Virus record (IMG/VR): IMGVR_UViG_3300033463_000104
Coordinates: 3,819-67,818 of that record
DNA: 64,000 nucleotides
Source of the DNA: a virus
Lineage: Duplodnaviria; Caudoviricetes
Reading direction: 5' to 3' (one strand)
Shown here: positions 1,118 through 55,428 of the stretch, one piece after another
Position numbering within the stretch: the stretch's first letter is position 1
Layout of the letters: each line of letters starts with the position of its first letter
The notes under the pieces: model-generated
Told to the model about the DNA's origin: nothing
Database searches by the model: none
Seen by the model: only the letters and a program-made list of their open reading frames with translations
Translations under genes and position numbers: made by a program

Positions 1118-1125
1118 TATCTTTG
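1118..1125 (+). promoter_or_regulatory. Bacteroidota -7 promoter element (TAnnTTTG)
   Basis: TATCTTTG 4 nt upstream of the ATG at 1130. Confidence 0.6.
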
Positions 1126-3081: not shown

Positions 3082-3486
3082 TCAGACCTCGCGGCAATGA
3101 TCACATGCCAGATGGCATACTATATCAGACAGTCGTAAAGCCACTTCTCCGGCCAAATAGCAGAGTTTCTCGCTTTCCAGGTCTACTCCGTCAGTCACGC
3201 AGATATCTATTGCGAAATGGCCTAATTCATGGCAAAACGTGGACATGAACTGTCCGCCATCGGTTGTAGGACCGAAATAAACGACGCTTCTTCGCAAAGG
3301 CGGGCTTGAGAAGGTAAATCCTTCGTTCATCATACCTTCTGCCAGATTGGCTGATACGCTATGGAAAACAGAAGCGGGAGCATCGCAGCTGACCAGCTGC
3401 CGATAGATCTCCTCGTCGTCATATCCTCCGGTAGAGAACAGAAAGACACCTTCCCAGCCTGCTATGTTTATCTTACGCCGTATCAT
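3082..3486 (-). CDS. HEXXH-motif protein (putative zinc metallopeptidase)
   Basis: STFCHELGHF motif; C-terminal CHLACDHC. Confidence 0.6.
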   Translation of the reverse strand: MIRRKINIAGWEGVFLFSTGGYDDEEIYRQLVSCDAPASVFHSVSANLAEGMMNEGFTFSSPPLRRSVVYFGPTTDGGQFMSTFCHELGHFAIDICVTDGVDLESEKLCYLAGEVALRLSDIVCHLACDHCREV

Positions 3487-3489
3487 GGC

Positions 3490-3891
3490 CTAAATTACGT
3501 CTTCCCACATGACCGGAACGCCCTTCGCCGAACAGTCCGCAAGGAATCTCGTTAGCGCAACACCCTCGTAGCCGTCCTTGTCGTCGAGGACGTCCTTGAC
3601 ATACTTGGCGAGGTGCGCCTCGTCGGGGACCGAACTTCCGCTGTAATCGCTTAGGCCCATATGCATGACAAAGACCTTGTCGTAGCCGTAGTCATGCTCC
3701 AGTTTCACGCCGTGCGCCTGAAGGATGGCGTCGACCTGCTCCTTTGACCGCATGGCCAGCTTTTCGCCGTTCCTGTCACGCATCATGCCGACGGCCCACT
3801 CGCACATTTTTTTCGAGAAGTGCCACGAATAGTTCGACAGATATGCATCCATTCCGGACGGAAGGATGTCGTAGTAGTCCATTCTTGCCAT
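3490..3891 (-). CDS. conserved-looking hypothetical phage protein
   Basis: 133-aa ORF, tightly packed in the operon. Confidence 0.75.
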   Translation of the reverse strand: MARMDYYDILPSGMDAYLSNYSWHFSKKMCEWAVGMMRDRNGEKLAMRSKEQVDAILQAHGVKLEHDYGYDKVFVMHMGLSDYSGSSVPDEAHLAKYVKDVLDDKDGYEGVALTRFLADCSAKGVPVMWEDVI

Positions 3892-3943
3892 AATTTTCTG
3901 AATTAATGGGGCGGAGCGCAGACCCCGCCCCGGGTTTTACTTT

Positions 3944-4207
3944 TTACATGTAGCGGCCACGCGAGTCGCGGCGCCGGCGTTCATGGTAATCGTCCCACTC
4001 CGGATCGCGACGTCCGTAGCGGTCTTCTTCCCAGTCACGTTCGCGCATACCGTAGTAGCGCTCCCCGTAGCGGGATTCCATTTCCCTTGCGAGTTCCATC
4101 ATCGTGGCTACGCCTTCTTTGGCCATGCGCGCCGCTTCATAGAAAGCCTCGGCGTCACGGTCGGGGTGGTGAGACTTCTCACCGAATCTGTATACGTTCC
4201 AGCCCAT
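3944..4207 (-). CDS. highly charged Arg/Asp/Glu/Tyr-rich hypothetical protein
   Basis: ends ERRRRDSRGRYM. Confidence 0.75.
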   Translation of the reverse strand: MGWNVYRFGEKSHHPDRDAEAFYEAARMAKEGVATMMELAREMESRYGERYYGMRERDWEEDRYGRRDPEWDDYHERRRRDSRGRYM

Positions 4208-5089: not shown

Positions 5090-5965
5090 TTAGAATACGA
5101 GACCGCCGGTGTAATAGCCGCCGGAATACGGGGTGTTGTTCACGGCCACGACGTTGGGATACTGAACCGGAATGGTGTTCGGAATCTTCGCCGCAAGCTC
5201 GGAGATGCGGGCATTCAGCGCGTTGATTCCGGCGTTCAGCTGCAGCGACTGTGCGGCATTGTCGGCCTGGTTGCGAAGCTGGGTGATGATGTCGGCCTGC
5301 GTGTCAATCTTGGACTGCATTTCGCGTTCCTTGACGTCGCAGAAGGACTGGATCATCGTAGCCTTCAGGTCGGCGATGGCGTCTACGTTGCGCTGGCCTG
5401 CACCTGCGATGGCGGTGCTGAGGGTGTTGGTCTGGTTCAGCGTTGCGAGCTGGTTCTGGTAGCCCTGCTCAGCGACAAGCTGCTTCATCTGGCAGCAGCA
5501 CTGACAAAGCTGGCTCTGCATTGCAGCGTCGCCGCTCTGGATGGCGTTGATGACCTGCTGACCCGTGAGACCGAGCTGGCCGGCAAGCGTTGCGATGGCG
5601 CCCTGGATGGTGTTTACGCCAAGACGCAGGCTGTCCACGTCGCCATTGAGCGTGGTGGCCAGGAGCCGTACGTCGGCGTCGGTCCCGTTGATTGCGTTGA
5701 GGATCATCTCCGCGTTTGAGTTCGCAGTCGCCTGTGCGCCGAGGGATGCAGCGGCAGCTCCGTTGCCGCCCTGACCGCCCCAGCCGCCCCAGCCGCCGAA
5801 CAGGCCGGGCACGATCGCGCCGAGAAGTCCACCGAAGAAGGAAGAGCCGAAGCCGTTCCCAAAGAAGCCGTTGTTGCCCCAGCCGTTATTGCCGTAGGCT
5901 AACCATGCCGGAACAGTTCCGCTCTGACCGTCCGGAGTCATGATGATAGTTTTTTCGTCTGCCAT
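5090..5965 (-). CDS. Gly/Trp-rich N-terminus, long coiled coil with CQCCCQ motif; function unknown
   Basis: 291-aa ORF sequence composition. Confidence 0.8.
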   Translation of the reverse strand: MADEKTIIMTPDGQSGTVPAWLAYGNNGWGNNGFFGNGFGSSFFGGLLGAIVPGLFGGWGGWGGQGGNGAAAASLGAQATANSNAEMILNAINGTDADVRLLATTLNGDVDSLRLGVNTIQGAIATLAGQLGLTGQQVINAIQSGDAAMQSQLCQCCCQMKQLVAEQGYQNQLATLNQTNTLSTAIAGAGQRNVDAIADLKATMIQSFCDVKEREMQSKIDTQADIITQLRNQADNAAQSLQLNAGINALNARISELAAKIPNTIPVQYPNVVAVNNTPYSGGYYTGGLVF

Positions 5966-25414: not shown

Positions 25415-25422
25415 CAAATATA
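25415..25422 (-). promoter_or_regulatory. TAnnTTTG promoter element
   Basis: TATATTTG 4 nt before the ATG at 25410. Confidence 0.6.
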
Positions 25423-39571: not shown

Positions 39572-41338
39572 TTATACCCATATTTCGGTCCTTCTTGCAC
39601 GGCGTCCCGTGGCAGGACCTGAATTGTAGTCAAAATTCTGAAAAAGCCCATCGTATGCATCATCCTCAATCTCTGGAGCCGGCTGCTTCTTAGGTCTTCC
39701 GTCGAGATCCCAAATCATCCGAAGATACATCGTATCGATAATGTTTGGAGATGCGTGAAACTTCGCCCGGTATTCGTCCTTGCTACGATAATATATCCGC
39801 TTGTTCCGCTGCTGGACACGGAACGTATTGATCTCATCGTAAAGGACATCAATAAGCCGCCTCGTCTCCCCCTTCTTTCCGTAAGGTATCCTCATATTAA
39901 GGTCGAGCGTAGTTGATATTTTCCCTGTCTGAAGTGCAACCTGAAGTTTGCCCATCAACTGCGATCTTAGATTGAAATACTGCTCAAACAAGACCTGGTT
40001 ACCGTTTGCATCATATTCCTGCATAGCGGTTTTGTTTGCCGTAACCGGCCAACCAGAAGTATAAGCCTTAAGATAGTTGCCAAGCCCGGTCGCATCAAAG
40101 GCAAAATTTTCTTTTGGAACCCCGTATGATGTTAACTTATCATCAATCCAGTCGACAAGTTGCTTTGGGTCTCCACGAAAAAAGTGAATCCCTATGATTG
40201 TATGGCCACGCCAAATGATCATAGGGTTGTCATCTGAGTCGACGTTTCCGCCAGATACGTCCATCGTCGCATACAAATTTTCGTCTTCGTCGCTTGGGTT
40301 CGCAGCCATATCCCGCATCATTTGCTTTGTCACCAGTATCTCATCACTGTCAAGCGGGCCGGCATATCCTTCAGCGAGCACGCGGCGCTGATCCTCGCCG
40401 ACGGCGTGAAGGTTTGCAACGGATTGTCCACCCGTCGCCGCCACCAGCTTTCTGTTTCCGGCGGCATGACCGGTAAACAACGTGAAAGACTTAATCATAT
40501 CCTCTTCGGAAAGGCCCGCGGCCCGGTCTTCATCGTTAATTCGGATATTCGCCGCAGCAAGAACCTCTCTTTTGGAATCCCCCCATATCACCTGTTCCGG
40601 ATCATTCCCCTGGATGTAGAAATATCTTGTCTTACCGACCATGGACGGAATCAAATACCAGTCCGAACCGATGTATCCGGCAGTAACCAGAAAACGTGTC
40701 GTCCAGTGTTCGTGCTTGAAGTTGAAAGCAAGGACCATGCTCGGAATGACGCCGGAGCTATCACGGTTTCGGGAAAATATGTATGTAAACATCCTAAACT
40801 GCTCAATCGCCGTGGCTTCGTCGATGCAAATATATGAGCTCTGCTGCTTCTTGATATACTCCTGAAAGTCATCCCACTCCTTCGGATTCTCCGGATTAAA
40901 GTTCGCATGAATCATCTGGATAGCATTATTCCATTTTCTCCATGCGAACGTCGGGAGCTCACCCGTAGTTACCTCGCAGCTTGAAAAATTCCCCCAGACC
41001 TCCGATGCGTCACGGAACATGGACGTACCCTTCGCAGAATCAAGCTTTCTCACATTGATGAGTCGGCCGGTATATCCTACGCGACCGATGCCGTTCAGCG
41101 CCTTCAGCATCATTCCGTACGTCTTTCCTGACGTGGCCTCTCCTACGACAAAAATCAGGTTTGAATCGCATCGGCACATATCTTCCTGCAATCCTTCCTG
41201 CGGAATCAGATCCAGCTTTTCCCTCAAAACAAAATTTCCGACCTTATCGTATCCCTTATCACTCACAGTTGCTTTTTTCCGCTCTACATGTTCATAAAGC
41301 GGAGGAAAAGGTGCGTGATCTGGTCTGAGTCGAAACAT
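39572..41338 (-). CDS. terL: terminase large subunit
   Basis: FVVGEATSGKT Walker A, ICIDEA Walker B, MDVSGG nuclease motif, FAFDATGLG. Confidence 0.9.
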   Translation of the reverse strand: MFRLRPDHAPFPPLYEHVERKKATVSDKGYDKVGNFVLREKLDLIPQEGLQEDMCRCDSNLIFVVGEATSGKTYGMMLKALNGIGRVGYTGRLINVRKLDSAKGTSMFRDASEVWGNFSSCEVTTGELPTFAWRKWNNAIQMIHANFNPENPKEWDDFQEYIKKQQSSYICIDEATAIEQFRMFTYIFSRNRDSSGVIPSMVLAFNFKHEHWTTRFLVTAGYIGSDWYLIPSMVGKTRYFYIQGNDPEQVIWGDSKREVLAAANIRINDEDRAAGLSEEDMIKSFTLFTGHAAGNRKLVAATGGQSVANLHAVGEDQRRVLAEGYAGPLDSDEILVTKQMMRDMAANPSDEDENLYATMDVSGGNVDSDDNPMIIWRGHTIIGIHFFRGDPKQLVDWIDDKLTSYGVPKENFAFDATGLGNYLKAYTSGWPVTANKTAMQEYDANGNQVLFEQYFNLRSQLMGKLQVALQTGKISTTLDLNMRIPYGKKGETRRLIDVLYDEINTFRVQQRNKRIYYRSKDEYRAKFHASPNIIDTMYLRMIWDLDGRPKKQPAPEIEDDAYDGLFQNFDYNSGPATGRRARRTEIWV

Positions 41339-41345
41339 ACACTCG

Positions 41346-41353
41346 CAAAGATA
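41346..41353 (-). promoter_or_regulatory. TAnnTTTG promoter element
   Basis: TATCTTTG 7 nt before the terL ATG. Confidence 0.55.
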
Positions 41354-42457: not shown

Positions 42458-42537
42458 AGTTTTGCAAAGATAAGAAATAATTCTTTATCTGATCCGCCGA
42501 ATATGGAGGAATCGGACGCCGGAGCAATGTGTTGAAA

Positions 42538-43666: not shown

Positions 43667-43885
43667 TTACACTTTATATACCCACCCCAAAAACTGTACC
43701 CCGCCAGGAGTCTTCGTCTGAAATCCGCGATGCTCCTTCGCTCTCGGACACAACCAATGGTCTCCTTTCCATTGCATTGGATACATAAACTCAAGGCCGG
43801 ACTCCGGATTTCTGAAGGCCGCCAAGACAATAGTATCTACCGGTGGATGCTCGGTCGGCGGATTGAGGTTAATCTTTGTTTTCAT
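43667..43885 (-). CDS. hypothetical protein
   Basis: 72-aa ORF, ATGA overlap with the helicase stop. Confidence 0.6.
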   Translation of the reverse strand: MKTKINLNPPTEHPPVDTIVLAAFRNPESGLEFMYPMQWKGDHWLCPRAKEHRGFQTKTPGGVQFLGWVYKV

Positions 43886-45378
43886 ATCAGTTTCGGATCT
43901 CCATCTTTTTTCTTTACACGCCCAAGTTTATGTTCCTTGAAGAAGTACCAATATTTTGGGCTTATGTTTTCTCCGTGTTTCGTACGAAGCACTTCTATCG
44001 CCTTCATAAAAGCGCTCTTCATATCTTCCGGGTGCTTCTGGCAGATATCCCGAAGAATCCAGTCGTTTTTCCAGTTCTCCAACTTCTTCCTGGCGACATA
44101 ACCTTCGATTGTTTCCTCGCTGTTTTCTGCGGCTATCTCGTGCAGCTCTGCCTGAAATATCTCATGCTGCGTCGGGAAGTGATATCCGCAAAACTGACAA
44201 TCTGTCCATGATACAGGAACAAGTCTGTGACAACCCTGGCATTCCTTCGTAGGCGCGACGCCGCCTCCAGAGCCAGTATTGTGCCAAAGACTGTATGTCC
44301 GGTCATCCTCGTACCTTCCTAAGCGCTCGTAATTCCTACCAAAATCAAGACAAATAAACTCTCCGTTCTTACCTGGTGCGGGCCTGCTTGCTCTCCCGCA
44401 ACTCTGAAGATACTTGACGACCGAAGTTGTGGAGTACATAAGCATCACAACCTTGATGCTCGGCACATCAAGTCCTGCGACTCCAATCCCGAGATTCACA
44501 AGGATATCAAACTCGCCATTCTCGAAATCTTTTAGTAACTGCTTCCTGTCGTCGCTTAACTCAGAATCTTCGTCAAAACTGTTTGATAATAGGTATTTAG
44601 CTTTTATGCCGTGGTCATTGAACTCTTGCGTAAGGCCGATGCATTGTTCGGAACTACATGCAAAGACTATTGCCTTCTCTCCAGGGCAAATTCTCTGGTA
44701 ATTCTCGACTGCACCGACATATCTCGCCCGAGACTTGAATTTCGCCGCCATCTGTCCAAGATTGTAGTCGCCTCTGCCGTAATCCCATGCGACATCTTCC
44801 ATAGACGGAGCGTCAAGAGAATATAGCCTGCATCGACAAAGATAACCCAAGTTGATGAGATCTTTTACGCTCGGGCCTAATACCATTGCATTGTACTGCA
44901 ATCCCGCCTGCGTCATACCGCCATATCTCGCCATCGTAGCTGTGTATCCTACAACATAGCACTTGTCGGAGATAATATCAAAGAGAAAGTCATAGTTACA
45001 GATATGAGCCTCATCCAAAACAAGCATCTGTACCGACTTAACATATTCCATCCACTCGGGTTTCTCGATTCTTCGTTGCAGGGTTTGCACCATTCCACAG
45101 ACAATATCTTCGGTCGGAACTTTACGATGCCTTGGTGATATGATTTGAGGTTCTACGCCGCACTTTCGGCAGTGCCCGGCATTCTGCTTCATTATCTCCT
45201 CTCGATGCGCCAAGATGAGTGTTTTAGTGCCTTTATTGGCGGCCAACGAGGCCACATATCCAAGTACGGTTCCCTTCCCGCTTCCGGTGGGCATAACGCA
45301 GACTACTCGCCGATATTTGGCTAATCCAGAACGGATTTCATTGACGGCTGTTTTCTGATATTCTCTCAATTCTACCAT
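43882..45378 (-). CDS. SF2 DEAD/DEAH-box helicase (RadD/YejH-like) with zinc finger
   Basis: LREYQ, PTGSGKG, LDEAH, TAT, QSCGRASR motifs; CQGC..CQFC. Confidence 0.92.
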   Translation of the reverse strand: MVELREYQKTAVNEIRSGLAKYRRVVCVMPTGSGKGTVLGYVASLAANKGTKTLILAHREEIMKQNAGHCRKCGVEPQIISPRHRKVPTEDIVCGMVQTLQRRIEKPEWMEYVKSVQMLVLDEAHICNYDFLFDIISDKCYVVGYTATMARYGGMTQAGLQYNAMVLGPSVKDLINLGYLCRCRLYSLDAPSMEDVAWDYGRGDYNLGQMAAKFKSRARYVGAVENYQRICPGEKAIVFACSSEQCIGLTQEFNDHGIKAKYLLSNSFDEDSELSDDRKQLLKDFENGEFDILVNLGIGVAGLDVPSIKVVMLMYSTTSVVKYLQSCGRASRPAPGKNGEFICLDFGRNYERLGRYEDDRTYSLWHNTGSGGGVAPTKECQGCHRLVPVSWTDCQFCGYHFPTQHEIFQAELHEIAAENSEETIEGYVARKKLENWKNDWILRDICQKHPEDMKSAFMKAIEVLRTKHGENISPKYWYFFKEHKLGRVKKKDGDPKLI

Positions 45379-45385
45379 ACGGACC

Positions 45386-45973
45386 TTATTCGTATTTCCA
45401 AATATAACCACCAGCGTGGCGGCGTTCTCCCTTGCAAACCTTGCTTATATTCTTGAATTGAACGCCAGTTTCTCTTTGGGCCTCAGCAATTCCATTATAT
45501 TTTTTGATAAAATTGCCATACATATCATACTGTAAAACGGGCTTATGTGAAGAGCTGTTTTTGCCACGAGTGCCATACATACCATTCTTCGTCCCCTTCT
45601 TTGATTCTGAGAAATGCTTACGCGCTAACTCATAACCATTATTCTCTGCAATGGTGCACCATCTTAAATTCTCAACTCTATTGTCTGATCGATCCCCGTT
45701 TATATGGTCAATACATGGTTTGTTCTCTGGATTAGGTATAAATGCCTTTGCGACCAATGTGTGAACCGCGTAGTTCTTGCCGTTATGCTTCCTGTCTTTT
45801 AAAATTAGTCGTGGATAACCTTTATTTTTGCCAGGTTCAAGTATTCGTTCTTGCAAAATCAATAGACCCATCTTTCTGCGAAGAATCTCCCTATATAGCC
45901 TCTTGATTCTACCCATAGTGCTTACCTCGTACAGCCCTTCATACCCTTCGATCGGTCTCCAAATTTCTTCCAT
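45386..45973 (-). CDS. NUMOD4-HNH-NUMOD1 homing endonuclease
   Basis: EIWRPIEGYEGLYEVS; VHTLVAKAF; DHINGDRSDNRVENLRW; C-terminal HAGGYIWKY. Confidence 0.92.
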   Translation of the reverse strand: MEEIWRPIEGYEGLYEVSTMGRIKRLYREILRRKMGLLILQERILEPGKNKGYPRLILKDRKHNGKNYAVHTLVAKAFIPNPENKPCIDHINGDRSDNRVENLRWCTIAENNGYELARKHFSESKKGTKNGMYGTRGKNSSSHKPVLQYDMYGNFIKKYNGIAEAQRETGVQFKNISKVCKGERRHAGGYIWKYE

Positions 45974-45985
45974 ATTATAAGATAA

Positions 45986-46069
45986 CGCCCCGGACTTTCA
46001 TACAAAGGTCGCAGCTCTGTATTACTCATTCGGGGCGATAAGTTTCTATTCATTGTCTGCGACACAATG
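45986..46069 (-). ncRNA. structured 5' leader with 7-nt loop-loop pairing (copy 1)
   Basis: CATTGT[GTCGCAG]ACAATG; CGCCCCG/CGGGGCG enclosing ATACAGAG[CTGCGAC]CTTTGTAT; own TATCTTTG at 46076-46083. Confidence 0.7.
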
Positions 46070-46110
46070 TTTCTACAAAGATAGTAAAAATGACTCAAAG
46101 AAGCAAGTAA

Positions 46111-46272
46111 TCATTCGAACTCCCTCCTTACCGCCGGACTTTCCGTCCGTTCCCAGACATTTCCGTCATACGACACGAAATACTCGTCGCCGAGACGCAG
46201 GAGATATCCATATGTCACCACCAGCTCGCCTTTTCCTTTCTCCAAGAGACCCATAACTTCTTCTCCGCTCAT
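46111..46272 (-). CDS. small hypothetical protein missed by the ORF track
   Basis: MSGEEVMGLLEKG...RREFE, 53 aa, ATGA overlap with the upstream gene. Confidence 0.6.
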   Translation of the reverse strand: MSGEEVMGLLEKGKGELVVTYGYLLRLGDEYFVSYDGNVWERTESPAVRREFE

Positions 46273-46751
46273 TCCTTTATATCGAGTTTAATTAAATGCC
46301 ACGCCGAAAATCTTCCTACGCTACGGAGCCGGTCGATCCACATAGACCTCATCGATGTAAATTTACAGCCCCAGCGAGCCATACATATGTCATCCATTTT
46401 CGCTTCATCGATTTCTCGCCACGATGCCTGAAAAACCGGTCGGCACACTCTTCCGTCCAACGTGACGAACTCATCGTCAGTGTTCGGCTGCGCTTCCTCA
46501 AAAAAACGCTGCTCTATCGCCTCCGCGGGGCACAGGATCTCGCCGGCATAGTTGCACATAATCCTGTATCTGCCACCTGGCACGCTATTGTTCAGACTCC
46601 TCTTCTTTGCCATATACAACCCAAAGGCACTCAGTATTACTGATCGCCGTGGTCTTATGCCCTTCGACCCTGGCGTTCTGTTTCCATCTCTGTATGCATG
46701 CCTTGATCGTGATTCCATACCGCATGCGCGCCAGAATATCCGCCGCAGCAC
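46269..46751 (-). CDS. hypothetical protein
   Basis: 160-aa ORF; true start probably the internal MAKKRSL. Confidence 0.6.
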   Translation of the reverse strand: MLRRIFWRACGMESRSRHAYRDGNRTPGSKGIRPRRSVILSAFGLYMAKKRSLNNSVPGGRYRIMCNYAGEILCPAEAIEQRFFEEAQPNTDDEFVTLDGRVCRPVFQASWREIDEAKMDDICMARWGCKFTSMRSMWIDRLRSVGRFSAWHLIKLDIKE

Positions 46752-46962
46752 CGACCTTTAACAGGCGTACAGAAAAAATCGGGTAGGTTCCACCATTGAA
46801 AAAACGAATATAATCCCCCCTCTTCGCCTTCTGCCAGTCTATGTTGTATGCATACCCAACCGGCAGCAGGATAAAATCAAGCTGCATCTCCCCAGGCTCC
46901 ATATGGATAGCCTTGAGAATCTTCTTCTTACGCAGAACCGTATTTCCTTCGTAACTTAGCAC
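46585..46962 (-). CDS. hypothetical protein
   Basis: 125-aa ORF. Confidence 0.6.
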   Translation of the reverse strand: MLSYEGNTVLRKKKILKAIHMEPGEMQLDFILLPVGYAYNIDWQKAKRGDYIRFFNGGTYPIFSVRLLKVGAAADILARMRYGITIKACIQRWKQNARVEGHKTTAISNTECLWVVYGKEEESEQ

Positions 46963-47545
46963 TTAATGATGTTTTAGGACGCGTAATCTGCCACATAACC
47001 ATCTCAAAATCCACCATAGCCTTAGGCCCAAGCTTATGCATTTCTTCCATGGGAAAATTTTGAAATTCATAAATGAACTCCTGAATATATGCAATGTAGT
47101 CCTCCTTCCGGAAGGCACGCATAAATTTCGGAACCTTATCAGACCAATGTATCTTCCGATTGGTCTTAAAAAAAGCCATAGCCAGCTCGTTCGGGTATTC
47201 AAGCCACTCCTGAACGCCCATCAGGTAAAACCGCATCGTCATCGGAATGACCATATATTGAAATCCACTAACCTTTCTGATTCCATCTATATAATCGAAT
47301 CCAAGTGTTGACATCCTCTCTTCACGACACCACCTGAGCAACATGAACCGCCATCGCTTCCAGTCGAAAGACTCCTCTGGAAAACTAACAAGCCCGTACT
47401 TCCCCTGATGGAAGGTTGCATCAAACCACTCCTTCACGGCGAAATCATCCTCCGCCTCACAGGCTTCTATGACACCGCGACGAAAGCAGCTGTCAAAGAG
47501 GCGGAGGATTTCCGGTGCAGTTTTCAGGTTAAGGGGAGACCTCAT
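46928..47545 (-). CDS. hypothetical protein
   Basis: 205-aa ORF overlapping the exonuclease stop. Confidence 0.75.
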   Translation of the reverse strand: MRSPLNLKTAPEILRLFDSCFRRGVIEACEAEDDFAVKEWFDATFHQGKYGLVSFPEESFDWKRWRFMLLRWCREERMSTLGFDYIDGIRKVSGFQYMVIPMTMRFYLMGVQEWLEYPNELAMAFFKTNRKIHWSDKVPKFMRAFRKEDYIAYIQEFIYEFQNFPMEEMHKLGPKAMVDFEMVMWQITRPKTSLSAKLRRKYGSA

Positions 47546-48276
47546 TTCGTTTTCTTAAGCGTTCCTGTCTCAGGATCGACCACCCATTCGCCCTTCTTGA
47601 AGTCAGAAGGATTGATGTCGGACGATATCATGGCGTCGAACAAGCGGATCCGATTCTTCATCTCATCGATGCTGACCTCGTAATCTTCCCGCTTGAACTT
47701 GAACACAAGGCCGCGCCATGGTGCGAGAGGCGAGTCGGTGTCCTGCGGAATGTCATCGTCCTGGTAGATGTACTTGACTACCCAGATTTCCTCAATCCTC
47801 TGATTGGAGATAAACTGGCCGAGGAGCTGGTCACCATGGTCTTTCCATACGGCAAGCTTCTTCTCTTCGTACGAGGTGGACTCGTCGCCGAAGAACTCGA
47901 TGCTGGTCGAGCCGACGAGCGTCTTGAACTCAAATTCAATCTTCTGGTCCGGCGTGAACGCATCCGGACTTGCGCCTACCGGGCAGTCCGGGGCAACCCA
48001 GAACGGAATCTCCGGAAGATCCTTCGAGTAAACGATCTCGTCGAAGCCGAGATTTGCCCTTGCCCATTCGCAAATATACGGTTCCTGCTGATTACCGATT
48101 TCCATCGGACGGGCCGAAATAGAGTGCGCGAAGCCATGATTCCGCTCCCACCGCTTCTTTCTGATGTAAGACAGGTTCGTTTCGATGATCCCGCCTTTTC
48201 CGCTTGTAATGTCCCCGAGTTCACTGGCCGTGATCATCCCGAGGCGCTTCTGCATCCATGCTTCCTTCCTGCTCAT
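47542..48276 (-). CDS. YqaJ / lambda-exonuclease family recombination nuclease
   Basis: WMQKRLGMITASE; GNQQEP; VGASPDA; EFEFK. Confidence 0.88.
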   Translation of the reverse strand: MSRKEAWMQKRLGMITASELGDITSGKGGIIETNLSYIRKKRWERNHGFAHSISARPMEIGNQQEPYICEWARANLGFDEIVYSKDLPEIPFWVAPDCPVGASPDAFTPDQKIEFEFKTLVGSTSIEFFGDESTSYEEKKLAVWKDHGDQLLGQFISNQRIEEIWVVKYIYQDDDIPQDTDSPLAPWRGLVFKFKREDYEVSIDEMKNRIRLFDAMISSDINPSDFKKGEWVVDPETGTLKKTK

Positions 48277-51464: not shown

Positions 51465-53012
51465 TCAGAACGGTATATTACCCATGTTGTCACCCAGTCC
51501 CATGGCCCCGTGGATATCCGGCGTACGGTCTCCAAAGTCCTCCGCCTCGTCCAGGTCGCCCGTCAGGTCGAGCTCCGCATCCTTGCCGGGAACATATTCT
51601 ACGCCCTGCTTGATGCAGTACCACGTTCCGCTTCCACGGCGGTCCTTCGGGAAGCCCAGGTCATCGAAGATCTTCGACACGCTCTTCGCTGTCTTCGGCA
51701 CCTCGCCGTAGTCCTTGCAGTAACCCTGGTAGATATTCATCCATTCCTTCAGCGACTTCCAGTCCTCACCGCGCTTGCCGGCCTCGTAGCCGAACTCGCG
51801 GATCCAGCGCCTTGCCGAATTGGAATCGGCCTTCATCTCGCTCTTCATCTTCATGACACTCTCTGACATGTCAATTTTGCAGTCGTTGCCGATCAGCGCC
51901 TTGTATCCGTCATACATCCAGTTGAAGATCGCGGCCCGGACATTGTCCTCACGGAGCTTCGCCTCCAGCTGGGGATCCCGCTCCCGCTCCGACACCTTGT
52001 TCGGGCAGTTGATGATCAGGAAACGCCGGAAATAGCCATCGCTGTCGTCCGTCGTCGGCGGAATCTTGTTCGCGCAGCAGAGCATCAACGGCACCTTCGT
52101 CACCTTCGTCATCTCCCGCGAGTAGGGACTGCGACCCGTGAACTCGTTGCCGCTCACGAAAGCCTTGAAATCCCCTCCCGAGAAGTCCTTGTCCGACACA
52201 TCGTCGCAGTAATTCATGATCTTGCCGTTGACCTCTGCCATGTGGTAGTCCATCTGGTGGCTCTTGAAGAGCTGCTCCGGCGTGAACGTGGTGATGCAGT
52301 TCGTCACCGGCTGCCCGTTCTCGTCCTCGTTCTTCAGGACATTCACGATCGCCCGGCAGATCACGCTCTTGCCGTTCTGCCCCTCTCCGACGACGAAGCA
52401 GATGTATTCGAACTTATGCTTCGAGCGGTCAATCAAAAACGCCCCGCAGAACTGCTGGATCGCCGACCGCATGCCGTCGTCCGGCACCGTCTGCATGATC
52501 ACCTTGTCCCACAGGACGCTCTTCGCATCCGGCTTGTACGGGAAATTCAAGATCACGTCCGTACAATATTTGTAGTCATGCTCCTTCGCCCTGCCCGTCT
52601 CCAGGTCCAGGACGCAGTTCGTGAAGCATACGTACCTCCGGTTCGGATTGAACTGGCACCACTTCGTCTGCATCAGCGACTGCCGCACGTACTTCTCAAT
52701 CCGCTCCGCCGAGTCCAGCCGGTATACCAACCCCACGTTGCACTTCCTCATCACCTCCCTGATGATGCCCAGGAACCGCGTCTCGCTCATGAACTCGAAG
52801 AACCGGCCGTTGAACACGTAGGTCGCGCCGATCACGTCCGCCTTGAAAAAGCCGTTCCCCTTGTCATTCTCATCGCCACAGATGTAGCGCCGGAACTGCT
52901 CCGCCATCATAGCCTCGTTGTACTTATTCACGCGAGAGTCCCGCTCCCCAAGGTCCTGGATAGACGGCCCCACGGTCGAAAATAGGTAATCAATGACGAA
53001 TTTGTAGTCCAT
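51465..53012 (-). CDS. D5-like / P4-family primase-helicase (SF3)
   Basis: CFVVGEGQNGKS Walker A; YCDD Walker B; CANKIP; YFRRFLII. Confidence 0.9.
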   Translation of the reverse strand: MDYKFVIDYLFSTVGPSIQDLGERDSRVNKYNEAMMAEQFRRYICGDENDKGNGFFKADVIGATYVFNGRFFEFMSETRFLGIIREVMRKCNVGLVYRLDSAERIEKYVRQSLMQTKWCQFNPNRRYVCFTNCVLDLETGRAKEHDYKYCTDVILNFPYKPDAKSVLWDKVIMQTVPDDGMRSAIQQFCGAFLIDRSKHKFEYICFVVGEGQNGKSVICRAIVNVLKNEDENGQPVTNCITTFTPEQLFKSHQMDYHMAEVNGKIMNYCDDVSDKDFSGGDFKAFVSGNEFTGRSPYSREMTKVTKVPLMLCCANKIPPTTDDSDGYFRRFLIINCPNKVSERERDPQLEAKLREDNVRAAIFNWMYDGYKALIGNDCKIDMSESVMKMKSEMKADSNSARRWIREFGYEAGKRGEDWKSLKEWMNIYQGYCKDYGEVPKTAKSVSKIFDDLGFPKDRRGSGTWYCIKQGVEYVPGKDAELDLTGDLDEAEDFGDRTPDIHGAMGLGDNMGNIPF

Positions 53013-54158: not shown

Positions 54159-54890
54159 TCATTTCCACAGACCGCCCCACATGTCCAGCCACATCCTGCA
54201 CAGCACGCCGTGGTCCCTGTAGCTGCTCGCCCCCAGGTGTATGATGTACTCCCCGATGTTCACTCTCTTCCCCTTCAGCCCCCGGCGGTCGCACTCCGCA
54301 AGGAACCATGCGCCGGTATCCCACCACTGCCCGGGACCCGTCGTCAGCGCCCAGCACCACTCCCCGTTGAAATACCTGACGCCGGCCTTCCGGCACCGCT
54401 CCGCCCCGATCCAGCAGAGCATCGGCCAGAGCCGCTCGTACCGCTTCCCGTCCCTCCCTTCGTACCAGTGCCGCTCTCCTACCCAGGCCAGCCCCTCGCG
54501 ACTCCCCTCCTCCGCGAGCCGCACGATGCTCTTCCTGAGCAGCACGTCGCTGTCCAGCAGCAGGAACCCCTTCTCCCCGCGCAGGTCCAGGTTCCGCACC
54601 AGCCAGTCTATGCTCAGCATATGCCGGGCGCTCCCCCAGCGGTTCCACGCCTCCCTCTCGTCCTTGTCCGGCCACTTCGCGAGCTCCTTCTCGAAATCCA
54701 CGAGCTGCCCGCCGCCGTTCTGCAGCACCTCAACCCCGAACCCGTCTTCCGCGACGTACGGCAGCCGGTCCGAATTCTCGAACACGACGACCCTGACCGC
54801 GTCGCCGCACCACTTCCTGATACTGCGCACGAGCGCCCGCGTGAGCTCCGGCGTATTATAATGCACGACTGCCGCTATTACCTGTCCCAT
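54159..54890 (-). CDS. GT-A fold glycosyltransferase-like protein
   Basis: AAVVHYNTPE; VVVFENSD; FLLLDSDVLL (DxD); IIHLGASS. Confidence 0.7.
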   Translation of the reverse strand: MGQVIAAVVHYNTPELTRALVRSIRKWCGDAVRVVVFENSDRLPYVAEDGFGVEVLQNGGGQLVDFEKELAKWPDKDEREAWNRWGSARHMLSIDWLVRNLDLRGEKGFLLLDSDVLLRKSIVRLAEEGSREGLAWVGERHWYEGRDGKRYERLWPMLCWIGAERCRKAGVRYFNGEWCWALTTGPGQWWDTGAWFLAECDRRGLKGKRVNIGEYIIHLGASSYRDHGVLCRMWLDMWGGLWK

Positions 54891-54892
54891 AG

Positions 54893-55351
54893 CTATGCCC
54901 CCCATCTGAATACATACCCCTTCGCGCTCTTCCCCCGGCCGTCCGCAACCCGCCTGGCCTGCGCCGGATCCACGCCGAGCTCGCGGCATGCCGCCTGCAG
55001 GCTCTCGAACTTTCCGACGAAGGCGCCGTCGCGCTGATAGACCCAGCACCTGCGCCCTCCGGCCTTCCTTCCCTTGCGTTCCTCCTTCGTCTCGCTCCAC
55101 GCCAGGTTCTCCACCCGGTCATTCGTCCGGTCCCCATCCAGGTGCACCACGTACGGCCGCATCTCCGCGTTCGCCACGAACGCCCTTGCGACGAGGTAGC
55201 AGACGAGGACCTGCCTGCACCCCTCCTCCTTTCCTGACAAAGTGACATACCTGCCGCGCACCTTCGCAAGTACGCATCCCCGGGACCAGACATTGCCCAG
55301 CTCATCCACTTCGTATTTCCCGCCGAAGCCACGGATCTTCTTTCTTGCCAT
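54893..55351 (-). CDS. divergent NUMOD4-HNH endonuclease
   Basis: GKYEVDELGNV; YLVARAF; VHLDGDRTNDRVENLAW; SAKGYVFRW. Confidence 0.8.
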   Translation of the reverse strand: MARKKIRGFGGKYEVDELGNVWSRGCVLAKVRGRYVTLSGKEEGCRQVLVCYLVARAFVANAEMRPYVVHLDGDRTNDRVENLAWSETKEERKGRKAGGRRCWVYQRDGAFVGKFESLQAACRELGVDPAQARRVADGRGKSAKGYVFRWGA

Positions 55352-55428
55352 GCCCCGACGACCTGCAAAATCCGCGCCACTCCAAAATGACGATATCCAC
55401 AAGTTTTCCACAGTTCGGGAAGCCCAGG

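Follow-up and report, generated by a model that had tools for sequence, protein, structure and literature searches.

A family of leader RNAs with mutually paired hairpin loops precedes free-standing HNH endonuclease genes in phages of Bacteroidota hosts

To our knowledge, the regulation of selfish nuclease genes has been described almost only in T4-like coliphages, where it operates through simple hairpins. T4-like phages restrain their homing-endonuclease genes by means of promoters, terminators and leader hairpins that belong to those genes (PMC2988022), and the cases described include I-TevI, I-TevII, I-TevIII, segB and mobE as well as a hairpin that precedes seg43(25). The locus analysed here is similar in that its nuclease gene has a promoter of its own, hairpins and/or terminators lie near the start codon, and the insertion is located between essential genes (PMC2988022). 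In the T4-like cases, however, simple hairpins sequester the Shine-Dalgarno (SD) site and the late promoter lies inside the hairpin (PMC2988022), whereas the leader described here has no SD, leaves its AUG unpaired, and is transcribed from a promoter upstream of the whole fold. It also differs in combining kissing loops with a loop-E-like module, a design that is common to many divergent nuclease genes. A hairpin that includes the ribosome-binding site or the start codon, which defines the T4 type, was not found in the leader. The RNA family is new and well supported, and we regard it as an element of a known kind, a cis-regulatory leader that would restrain a mobile nuclease gene. It is used by a whole clade of uncultured Bacteroidota phages of the gut and rumen, whose nuclease genes are preceded by a conserved RNA tertiary architecture. 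This architecture unites an intramolecular kissing helix of 7 bp with a loop-E-like module and a stem resembling a terminator, and it is exchangeable together with the host-type promoter to which it is fused. The leader could also supply a compact regulatory part for the Bacteroidota, a phylum with few characterised cis-acting RNAs.

The DNA under study is a stretch of 64,000 nucleotides, referred to below as the window, and the features of the first copy of the leader (copy 1) all lie on its minus strand. The free-standing HNH homing-endonuclease gene (45386..45973) encodes 195 aa with Pfam matches to NUMOD4 (8.5e-13) and HNH_3 (5.7e-12), and also to the I-HmuI NUMOD-like domain and NUMOD1. 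The leader is situated directly 5' of this gene, and the next gene after it encodes the replication helicase, an SF2 enzyme (43882..45378; Pfam ResIII, DEAD and Helicase_C) that forms the right flank of the cassette. The HNH stop codon (45388-45386) is followed 7 nt on by the helicase ATG at 45378. On the left, the −33 box of the leader promoter starts 3 nt past the stop codon (46113-46111) of an upstream 53-aa ORF, which marks the other edge of the cassette.

The folded RNA is about 95 bases long, and two of its hairpin loops pair together. The P1 hairpin (46051..46069), as given by the nested minimum free energy (MFE) fold, has a 6-bp stem with arms 46069-46064 and 46056-46051 and a 7-nt loop, L1 (46063-46057). 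An A-rich linker, 13 nt long in copy 1 (46038..46050) and 13-18 nt long across the family with a conserved AGAAA core, connects P1 to a long irregular hairpin (45986..46037) that is delimited by the fold and by family covariation. This hairpin consists of the outer stem P2 (46037-46031 with 45992-45986; 7 bp, all G-C), a loop-E-like internal loop in which AGUA (46026-46023) lies opposite GAA (45999-45997), and the inner hairpin P3 (46022-46015 with 46007-46000; 8 bp including one G-U) with its 7-nt loop L3 (46014-46008), the partner of L1. A U-rich tail (45974..45985) occupies the space between P2 and the start codon and is terminator-like together with P2. The original prediction had described copy 1 as a leader with two perfectly complementary 7-nt loops, and when read on the minus strand this description was correct at all coordinates: L1 and L3 are exact reverse complements (7/7), and the complementarity stops at the loop edges. 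An extended duplex between the P1 and P3 hairpins was rejected, since complementarity is confined to the loops.

The arrangement recalls kissing complexes of the ColE1 RNA I/RNA II type, in which two hairpin loops of 7 nt are fully complementary. Shared with that system are 7-nt loops that are complementary throughout, strictly Watson-Crick pairing, and the confinement of pairing to the loops. Unlike RNA I and RNA II, the two hairpins of the leader belong to a single molecule, in which about 35 nt separate them, and an antisense partner is absent.

Evidence from the single copy is weak, because the MFE fold, which returned all three helices, had a z-score of only −1.66, and because the L1/L3 heptamer occurred 14 times in the 64,000-nt window compared with 9.2 occurrences expected. 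It was the family evidence presented below that settled the reality of the fold, which lies well outside what chance would produce. A second pair of loop heptamers, at 52129-52209, was attributed to chance; it lies inside the primase/helicase ORF and its order is reversed. Two further candidate features were discarded. A leader peptide was not accepted: in copy 1 and in the relatives L001 and L004 a short frame does begin at an ATG within the 3' arm of P1, but other subfamilies do not have it. Likewise, a hammerhead-like core (GAUGAG ... GAAA) was rejected, as its flanks pair mutually as a two-way junction and Rfam gave nothing.

The leader is preceded by a promoter made up of a −33 element, CTTGC (46103..46107), and a −7 element of the TAnnTTTG type, TATCTTTG (46076..46083). 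The general layout, TTG(C) followed after about 20 nt by TAnnTTTG, precedes the fold in 25 of the 26 distinct leaders checked, and the distance from the −7 box to P1 is fixed across leaders. When 24 sequences were aligned on the −7 box, the T at −22 was invariant and T was present at −23 in 19. This layout agrees with the consensus published for the primary sigma factor of Bacteroides (PMC7366714). Thus TATCTTTG, which the original prediction had singled out upstream of P1, represents the −7 box within a complete promoter of the Bacteroidota type, which is conserved with the RNA, and the transcript is predicted to start a few nucleotides upstream of P1, at its foot. A sigma-70 reading, with a TATAAT sequence abutting an ATG, was rejected because the start would fall inside the ORF and because the phage otherwise uses TAnnTTTG promoters. 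Indeed, a motif scan detected the same −7 box immediately before several other genes of the phage. The use of TAnnTTTG promoters in the phage argues that its host is very probably a member of the Bacteroidota.

Two observations concern this promoter type elsewhere. TAnnTTTG boxes at 1118-1125 (+), 41346-41353 (−), 42465-42472 (−) and 25415-25422 (−) lie 4-8 nt before the ATGs at 1130, 41338, 42457 and 25410, respectively, of which the one at 41338 begins the gene that by position encodes the terminase large subunit. The spacing implies leaderless or nearly leaderless mRNAs for these four genes, as opposed to the ~100-nt leader on the nuclease genes. In L003 (~5490-5515), and also in L103, L005, L010, L090 and L117, a short hairpin with a GAAA tetraloop overlaps the −33 region; it is preceded by a run of A residues, is present in many cassettes, and could belong to the module and terminate transcription of the upstream gene.

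A tblastn search with the copy 1 HNH protein uncovered two more HNH-like ORFs in the window. One of them (62614-63255, +; 34% identical) belongs to copy 2, which was found by this search combined with short blastn. The copy 2 leader has the same architecture with a different sequence in every helix, and its loop pair departs from that of copy 1 at three positions, all of which are compensated. A DNA repeat search returned no second copy because the copies share structure rather than sequence. The other ORF (54856-55380, −), in a G+C-rich stretch, matches residues 56-194 of the copy 1 protein at 29% identity and has no NUMOD4 N-terminus, no Pfam match (E below 0.01) and no leader.

Four further leaders were taken from IMG/VR relatives of the helicase and the HNH protein, and alignment A1 of the resulting six sequences was the source of a covariance model, R1, from which the loop-loop pairs were left out. 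The structure was 96.9% paired in A1, and the loop-loop helix was 100% paired with four of its seven pairs changed on both sides. Copy 1 scored 124 bits with R1 and 107.9 bits with model R2, with P1, P2 and P3 matched in order. The model and a degenerate pattern scan, carried out once per collection on viral, metagenome and genome contigs, together yielded 57 matches that represent 47 distinct sequences. When two weak non-members are set aside, 45 distinct relatives with the fold remain, in viral and metagenome contigs. Across the 47 sequences the structure was 92.7% paired, compared with 68.2% in shuffles and 31.7-43.3% when the partners were slid. Covariation was unusually clean: changes on both sides were found in 24 of the 27 pairs, all three stems covary, and in P1 every pair (6/6) was changed on both sides across the family. 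When RNAalifold was applied to a separate MAFFT alignment of 20 diverse members, P1, P2 and P3 were recovered and P2 gained three pairs. P2 and P3 often contain G-U pairs on the sense strand, the base of P3 being G-U in 39 of the 47 sequences, which places the pairing in sense-strand RNA and not in duplex DNA. We assign copy 1 to a hitherto uncatalogued family of 5' leader RNAs that act in cis.

The claim that the two loops pair with each other was borne out by the same collection. The kissing helix was 96.1% paired in the 47 sequences and covaries strongly, with six of the seven pairs changed on both sides, no G-U at all, and three to four Watson-Crick pair types at each of the three central pairs. 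Given that this helix was absent from the search model, its covariation is independent evidence. Complementarity is kept through 13 different loop-pair sequences in the family; 41 of 47 sequences have 7-nt loops that are complementary along their full length, and in one further sequence a 7-nt complementary core lies within larger loops. A distinct loop sequence for each copy within a genome was found in four multi-copy loci, but by a rough estimate from loop frequencies such a one-loop-per-copy rule is not significant.

The internal loop is also strongly constrained. Alignment A6 and the rows listed of alignment A5 show no variation in AGTA and GAA, and the loop reduces to an invariant xAGUA opposite GAAA immediately beneath P3. 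We take AGUA opposite GAA to be the sequence signature of the loop-E or sarcin-ricin (bulged-G) module. Compared by this signature alone, the internal loop resembles loop E, with the invariant AGUA opposite GAA abutting a helix in both.

Searches for earlier descriptions gave no counterpart of the leader. Rfam 15 run on the whole window at gathering thresholds detected only a tRNA, and a permissive search of 45900-46150 gave only a spurious snoRNA (23 bits against a threshold of 45); no Rfam 15 family, including pistol, hammerhead, twister and HEARO, came near its gathering threshold for the leader. In blastn of 43800-47600 against 50,697 GenBank phage records, only the conserved HNH motif was matched, never the leader. 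Literature searches found no description of it, although the motif could stand unnamed in a published catalogue of structured RNAs from viruses (PMC10690425), which comprises more than 10,000 candidates. Among other pattern matches, 14 in isolate-derived viral contigs were excluded from membership as a single homologous coding sequence, and 57 of 60 in cellular genomes were noise. Only one convincing copy, L251 (55 bits), was found in 185,579 species-representative genomes. L251 (810-935) has complementary loops and a TAnnTTTG promoter, and is followed by a 248-aa non-HNH ORF; its contig is binned as Faecousia (Firmicutes), and the promoter type suggests a mis-binned contig of a Bacteroidota phage.

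Comparison of relatives at the helicase site showed that the promoter, the leader and the HNH gene are acquired and lost jointly, as a single block. All three are present upstream of the helicase in L001 (HNH protein 91% identical) and L004 (78%), and none of the three is present there in L002, L003, L005, L006, L007 or L008; the helicase start is identical in relatives with and without the HNH gene. Such a presence/absence polymorphism of the nuclease gene among otherwise collinear relatives is what characterizes a homing-endonuclease cassette. The left boundary is seen in L001, where a tRNA-like gene ends at 3267 and the insertion begins a few bases on, at the −33 box. In the window and in L001, no more than 7 nt separate the right boundary from the helicase ATG, and in L004 the HNH stop overlaps the helicase start. 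In the empty site of L002, a tRNA-like gene lies about 10 nt before the helicase ATG, and by eye L006 has the same layout. The tRNA-like genes before the helicase ATG were called by ARAGORN in L001 (3193-3267) and L002 (3903-3990), and were recognised only by eye in L006 (~3880-3990) and L007 (~3890-4000), where ARAGORN was silent. The nuclease cassette of L001 is wedged between a tRNA-like gene and the helicase.

The proposal that promoter, RNA and nuclease constitute a self-contained mobile cassette thus stood in so far as they come and go together at the helicase site; the cassette is modular, however, and not a fixed unit. Among the 45 leaders with a scorable downstream ORF, 38 precede NUMOD4-HNH genes and seven precede other genes, which encode two Zn-ribbon/CapR-like proteins, one SGGKDS (PP-loop-type) protein and several unknown proteins. 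Identity of the leader is almost uncoupled from identity of the protein (r = 0.27 over 528 pairs): leaders that are 96-100% identical stand in front of HNH proteins that are 30-45% identical, identical leaders are found with proteins 31% identical, and HNH proteins 78% identical have leaders 53% identical. In many pairs, DNA similarity (82-94% identity) does not extend beyond promoter, leader and the initial 20-60 nt of the ORF; flanks and gene bodies either are unrelated or reach just 65-75% identity. An orphan in L005 has promoter and leader downstream of the helicase, and the place taken in L003 by an HNH gene is occupied in L005 by a 232-nt segment that contains a 69-aa non-HNH ORF. The uncoupling of the two identities argues that the role of the leader is generic, and that it is not a site co-evolving with the recognition domain of one nuclease; autoregulation by the encoded nuclease is disfavoured for the same reason. 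We conclude that the leader family is part of a portable expression module of free-standing HNH genes in phages of Bacteroidota hosts.

What the leader does for that module must be judged from the sequence that follows the fold. The 10 nt after P2 contain on average 6.6 T residues in the family, compared with 2.3 (sd 1.5) at −14 to −5 of 76 other ORFs of the window, the upstream regions of which are A-rich; in copy 1 the tract is interrupted (6 T in 10). The AUG is positioned 10-15 nt after P2 in nearly all members, and in copy 1 the ATG at 45973 is 12 nt past P2. RNAalifold on the 20 members detected no conserved pairing past P2, leaving the AUG region unpaired. For the P2-P3 hairpin, free energies between −18 and −23 kcal/mol were predicted. 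P2 and the tail form a G+C-rich stem followed by a U-rich tract, as in an intrinsic terminator, which they look like; a standard terminator consensus scan did not call copy 1, in which P2 encloses the internal loop and P3 and the hairpin is too large. The attenuator of the pLS20 zipper type is a close described parallel in this respect, having a promoter-proximal leader, a last stem and U tract that are terminator-like before the first gene, and an upstream hairpin complementary to part of the terminator region (PMC13401043). The pLS20 antiterminator, which arises when the upstream segment pairs with terminator sequences, and the terminator are mutually exclusive (PMC13401043), whereas in the leader only the apical loops pair and all helices can coexist. 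In the MFE folds of several members the A-rich linker pairs with the U tract, and neither RNAalifold nor the MFE folds gave a conserved alternative (antiterminator) fold.

Our leading interpretation, to which we assign about an even chance, is that the leader is a terminator-based attenuator and insulator that keeps nuclease expression low and that, at this locus, also gates transcription into the helicase. The host-type promoter would start the RNA at the foot of P1, and P2 with the U tract would form a leaky intrinsic terminator. Held by the kissing helix and the loop-E-like module, the leader would be locked in one autonomous fold regardless of the flanking sequence. The strong promoter would then yield mostly the short RNA of ~95 nt, and only a small amount of nuclease mRNA would be made, independently of the insertion site. 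Adenines at −11 to −15 favour translation in Bacteroidota (PMC7366714), and the start region of the leader has none at these positions, which could add to the restraint. Transcription toward the helicase would cross the element, and the promoter of the cassette may offset polarity. The U enrichment, the hairpin energy, the pairing of linker with U tract in several MFE folds, the promoter, the unpaired AUG, the linkage to HNH genes, the gain and loss as a block, and the uncoupling of leader from protein identity are all in agreement with attenuation, for which the multilayer restraint in T4-like phages (PMC2988022) is a precedent, though with a simpler RNA. Several points weigh against it: the U tract of copy 1 is interrupted and its hairpin is too large for a simple terminator scan; a terminator right before an essential helicase would be costly; and the 10-15 nt spacing to the AUG fits translational control equally well. 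The linker, at ~14 nt, would have to span ~33 stacked base-pair layers and looks taut, so that kissing may aid, strain or not affect P2 closure.

With respect to the helicase, the original prediction had suggested that the cassette may control its expression, and the layout makes this plausible. The nearest strong promoter upstream of the copy 1 cassette is far off, and because the cassette occupies the space between the upstream ORF and the helicase ATG, all transcription bound for the helicase must cross the element. Between leader and helicase there is only a −7-like box, TATATTTG (45399..45406, minus strand), which was detected by the motif scan in the Y-I-W codons at the 3' end of the HNH gene. 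It lies 20 nt before the helicase ATG, is not accompanied by a −33 box and is lost in L004; it is a possible weak internal promoter for the helicase. From this arrangement we suggest that the leader probably throttles expression of the replication helicase. The locus offers a test case of how mobile cassettes insulate themselves from the insertion site and affect an essential neighbour.

The main rival to attenuation, which we consider distinctly less probable though a serious candidate, is a translational or mRNA-stability element that acts without termination. The fold would end at the edge of the ribosome mRNA channel and set 30S loading without a Shine-Dalgarno sequence, either by limiting loading or by serving as a standby or docking structure, and the 5'-proximal hairpin could protect the mRNA from decay. 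The tightly conserved spacing from P2 to the AUG, the unpaired AUG region and the location of P1 at the predicted 5' end are all accommodated by such a role, as is the fact that an unrelated second class of HNH leaders (described below) pairs a loop with a site 4-6 nt before the AUG. Initiation in Bacteroidetes, moreover, relies on upstream adenines rather than on SD pairing (PMC7366714). The translational reading, however, leaves the U enrichment right after the G+C stem unexplained, while the other genes of the phage have A-rich, not U-rich, upstream regions. It is also at odds with the L005 orphan, which keeps a tract of 8 U although its ORF starts 29 nt after P2.

More doubtful is the proposal that the RNA itself is the product, as a stable trans-acting RNA of ~95 nt, or that it works as a cis-acting antiterminator on polymerase. 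The put RNAs of phage HK022 act in cis and make the transcribing polymerase pass downstream terminators; a put-like leader would likewise cause read-through of downstream terminators, so that the cassette sits in operons without polar damage. The strong consensus promoter, the terminator-like end, the compact tertiary fold, the two hairpin domains immediately after the promoter, and the higher conservation of the leader DNA relative to both flanks and the gene body would all be expected of such an RNA. A trans-acting product, however, is difficult to reconcile with the lack of evident target complementarity, with the occupation of both variable loops by their mutual pairing, and with the direct joining of the leader to the start of an ORF in every case. 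One could also envisage, with similarly low probability, that the leader is a portable expression adaptor that acts either on polymerase in the put-like manner or on the Shine-Dalgarno-less ribosome of the Bacteroidota, the loop pair serving as an address. If so, the selfish nuclease cassette could settle in essential operons without polar damage, and the variable loop pair would prevent interference among several cassettes that share a genome. A role at the level of DNA, be it as a site recognised by the nuclease, as a site of recombination or as a cruciform of the mobile cassette, is very improbable, since, even though the element moves with a homing-endonuclease gene and a conserved DNA block could provide homology for exchange between cassettes, the G-U pairs of P2 and P3 occur on the sense strand only and become C-A mismatches on the other, the primary sequence drifts while pairing is kept, and the element lies within a few nucleotides downstream of a conserved promoter.

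Two other groups of structured sequences were noticed in the course of the comparisons. L226 (4547-4667, a Bacteroidota MAG), L269 (721-835, an Acetofilamentum MAG) and the metagenome contigs L135 and L153 show partial likeness to the leader, sharing only the G+C stem, the AGTA/GAAA internal loop and the T tract. Their apical part is different yet conserved and has no kissing partner, and their covariance-model scores are weak (30-36 bits); they may represent a related type of terminator that bears loop E. The second class of leaders, unrelated to the first, occurs before distant NUMOD4-HNH genes in other phages with TAnnTTTG promoters (L033, L052, L054, L034, L061, L066, L078 and L088), about 130 nt upstream of the HNH start at 1501 in alignment A7. 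A covarying outer stem followed by a T tract encloses two hairpins. In one of them the loop sequence AGTAGCTA is conserved; the other has a loop that is complementary both to a site just past the T tract and to a site 4-6 nt before the ATG, and this pairing covaries between loci, so that the second class looks like a loop-to-start-region switch.
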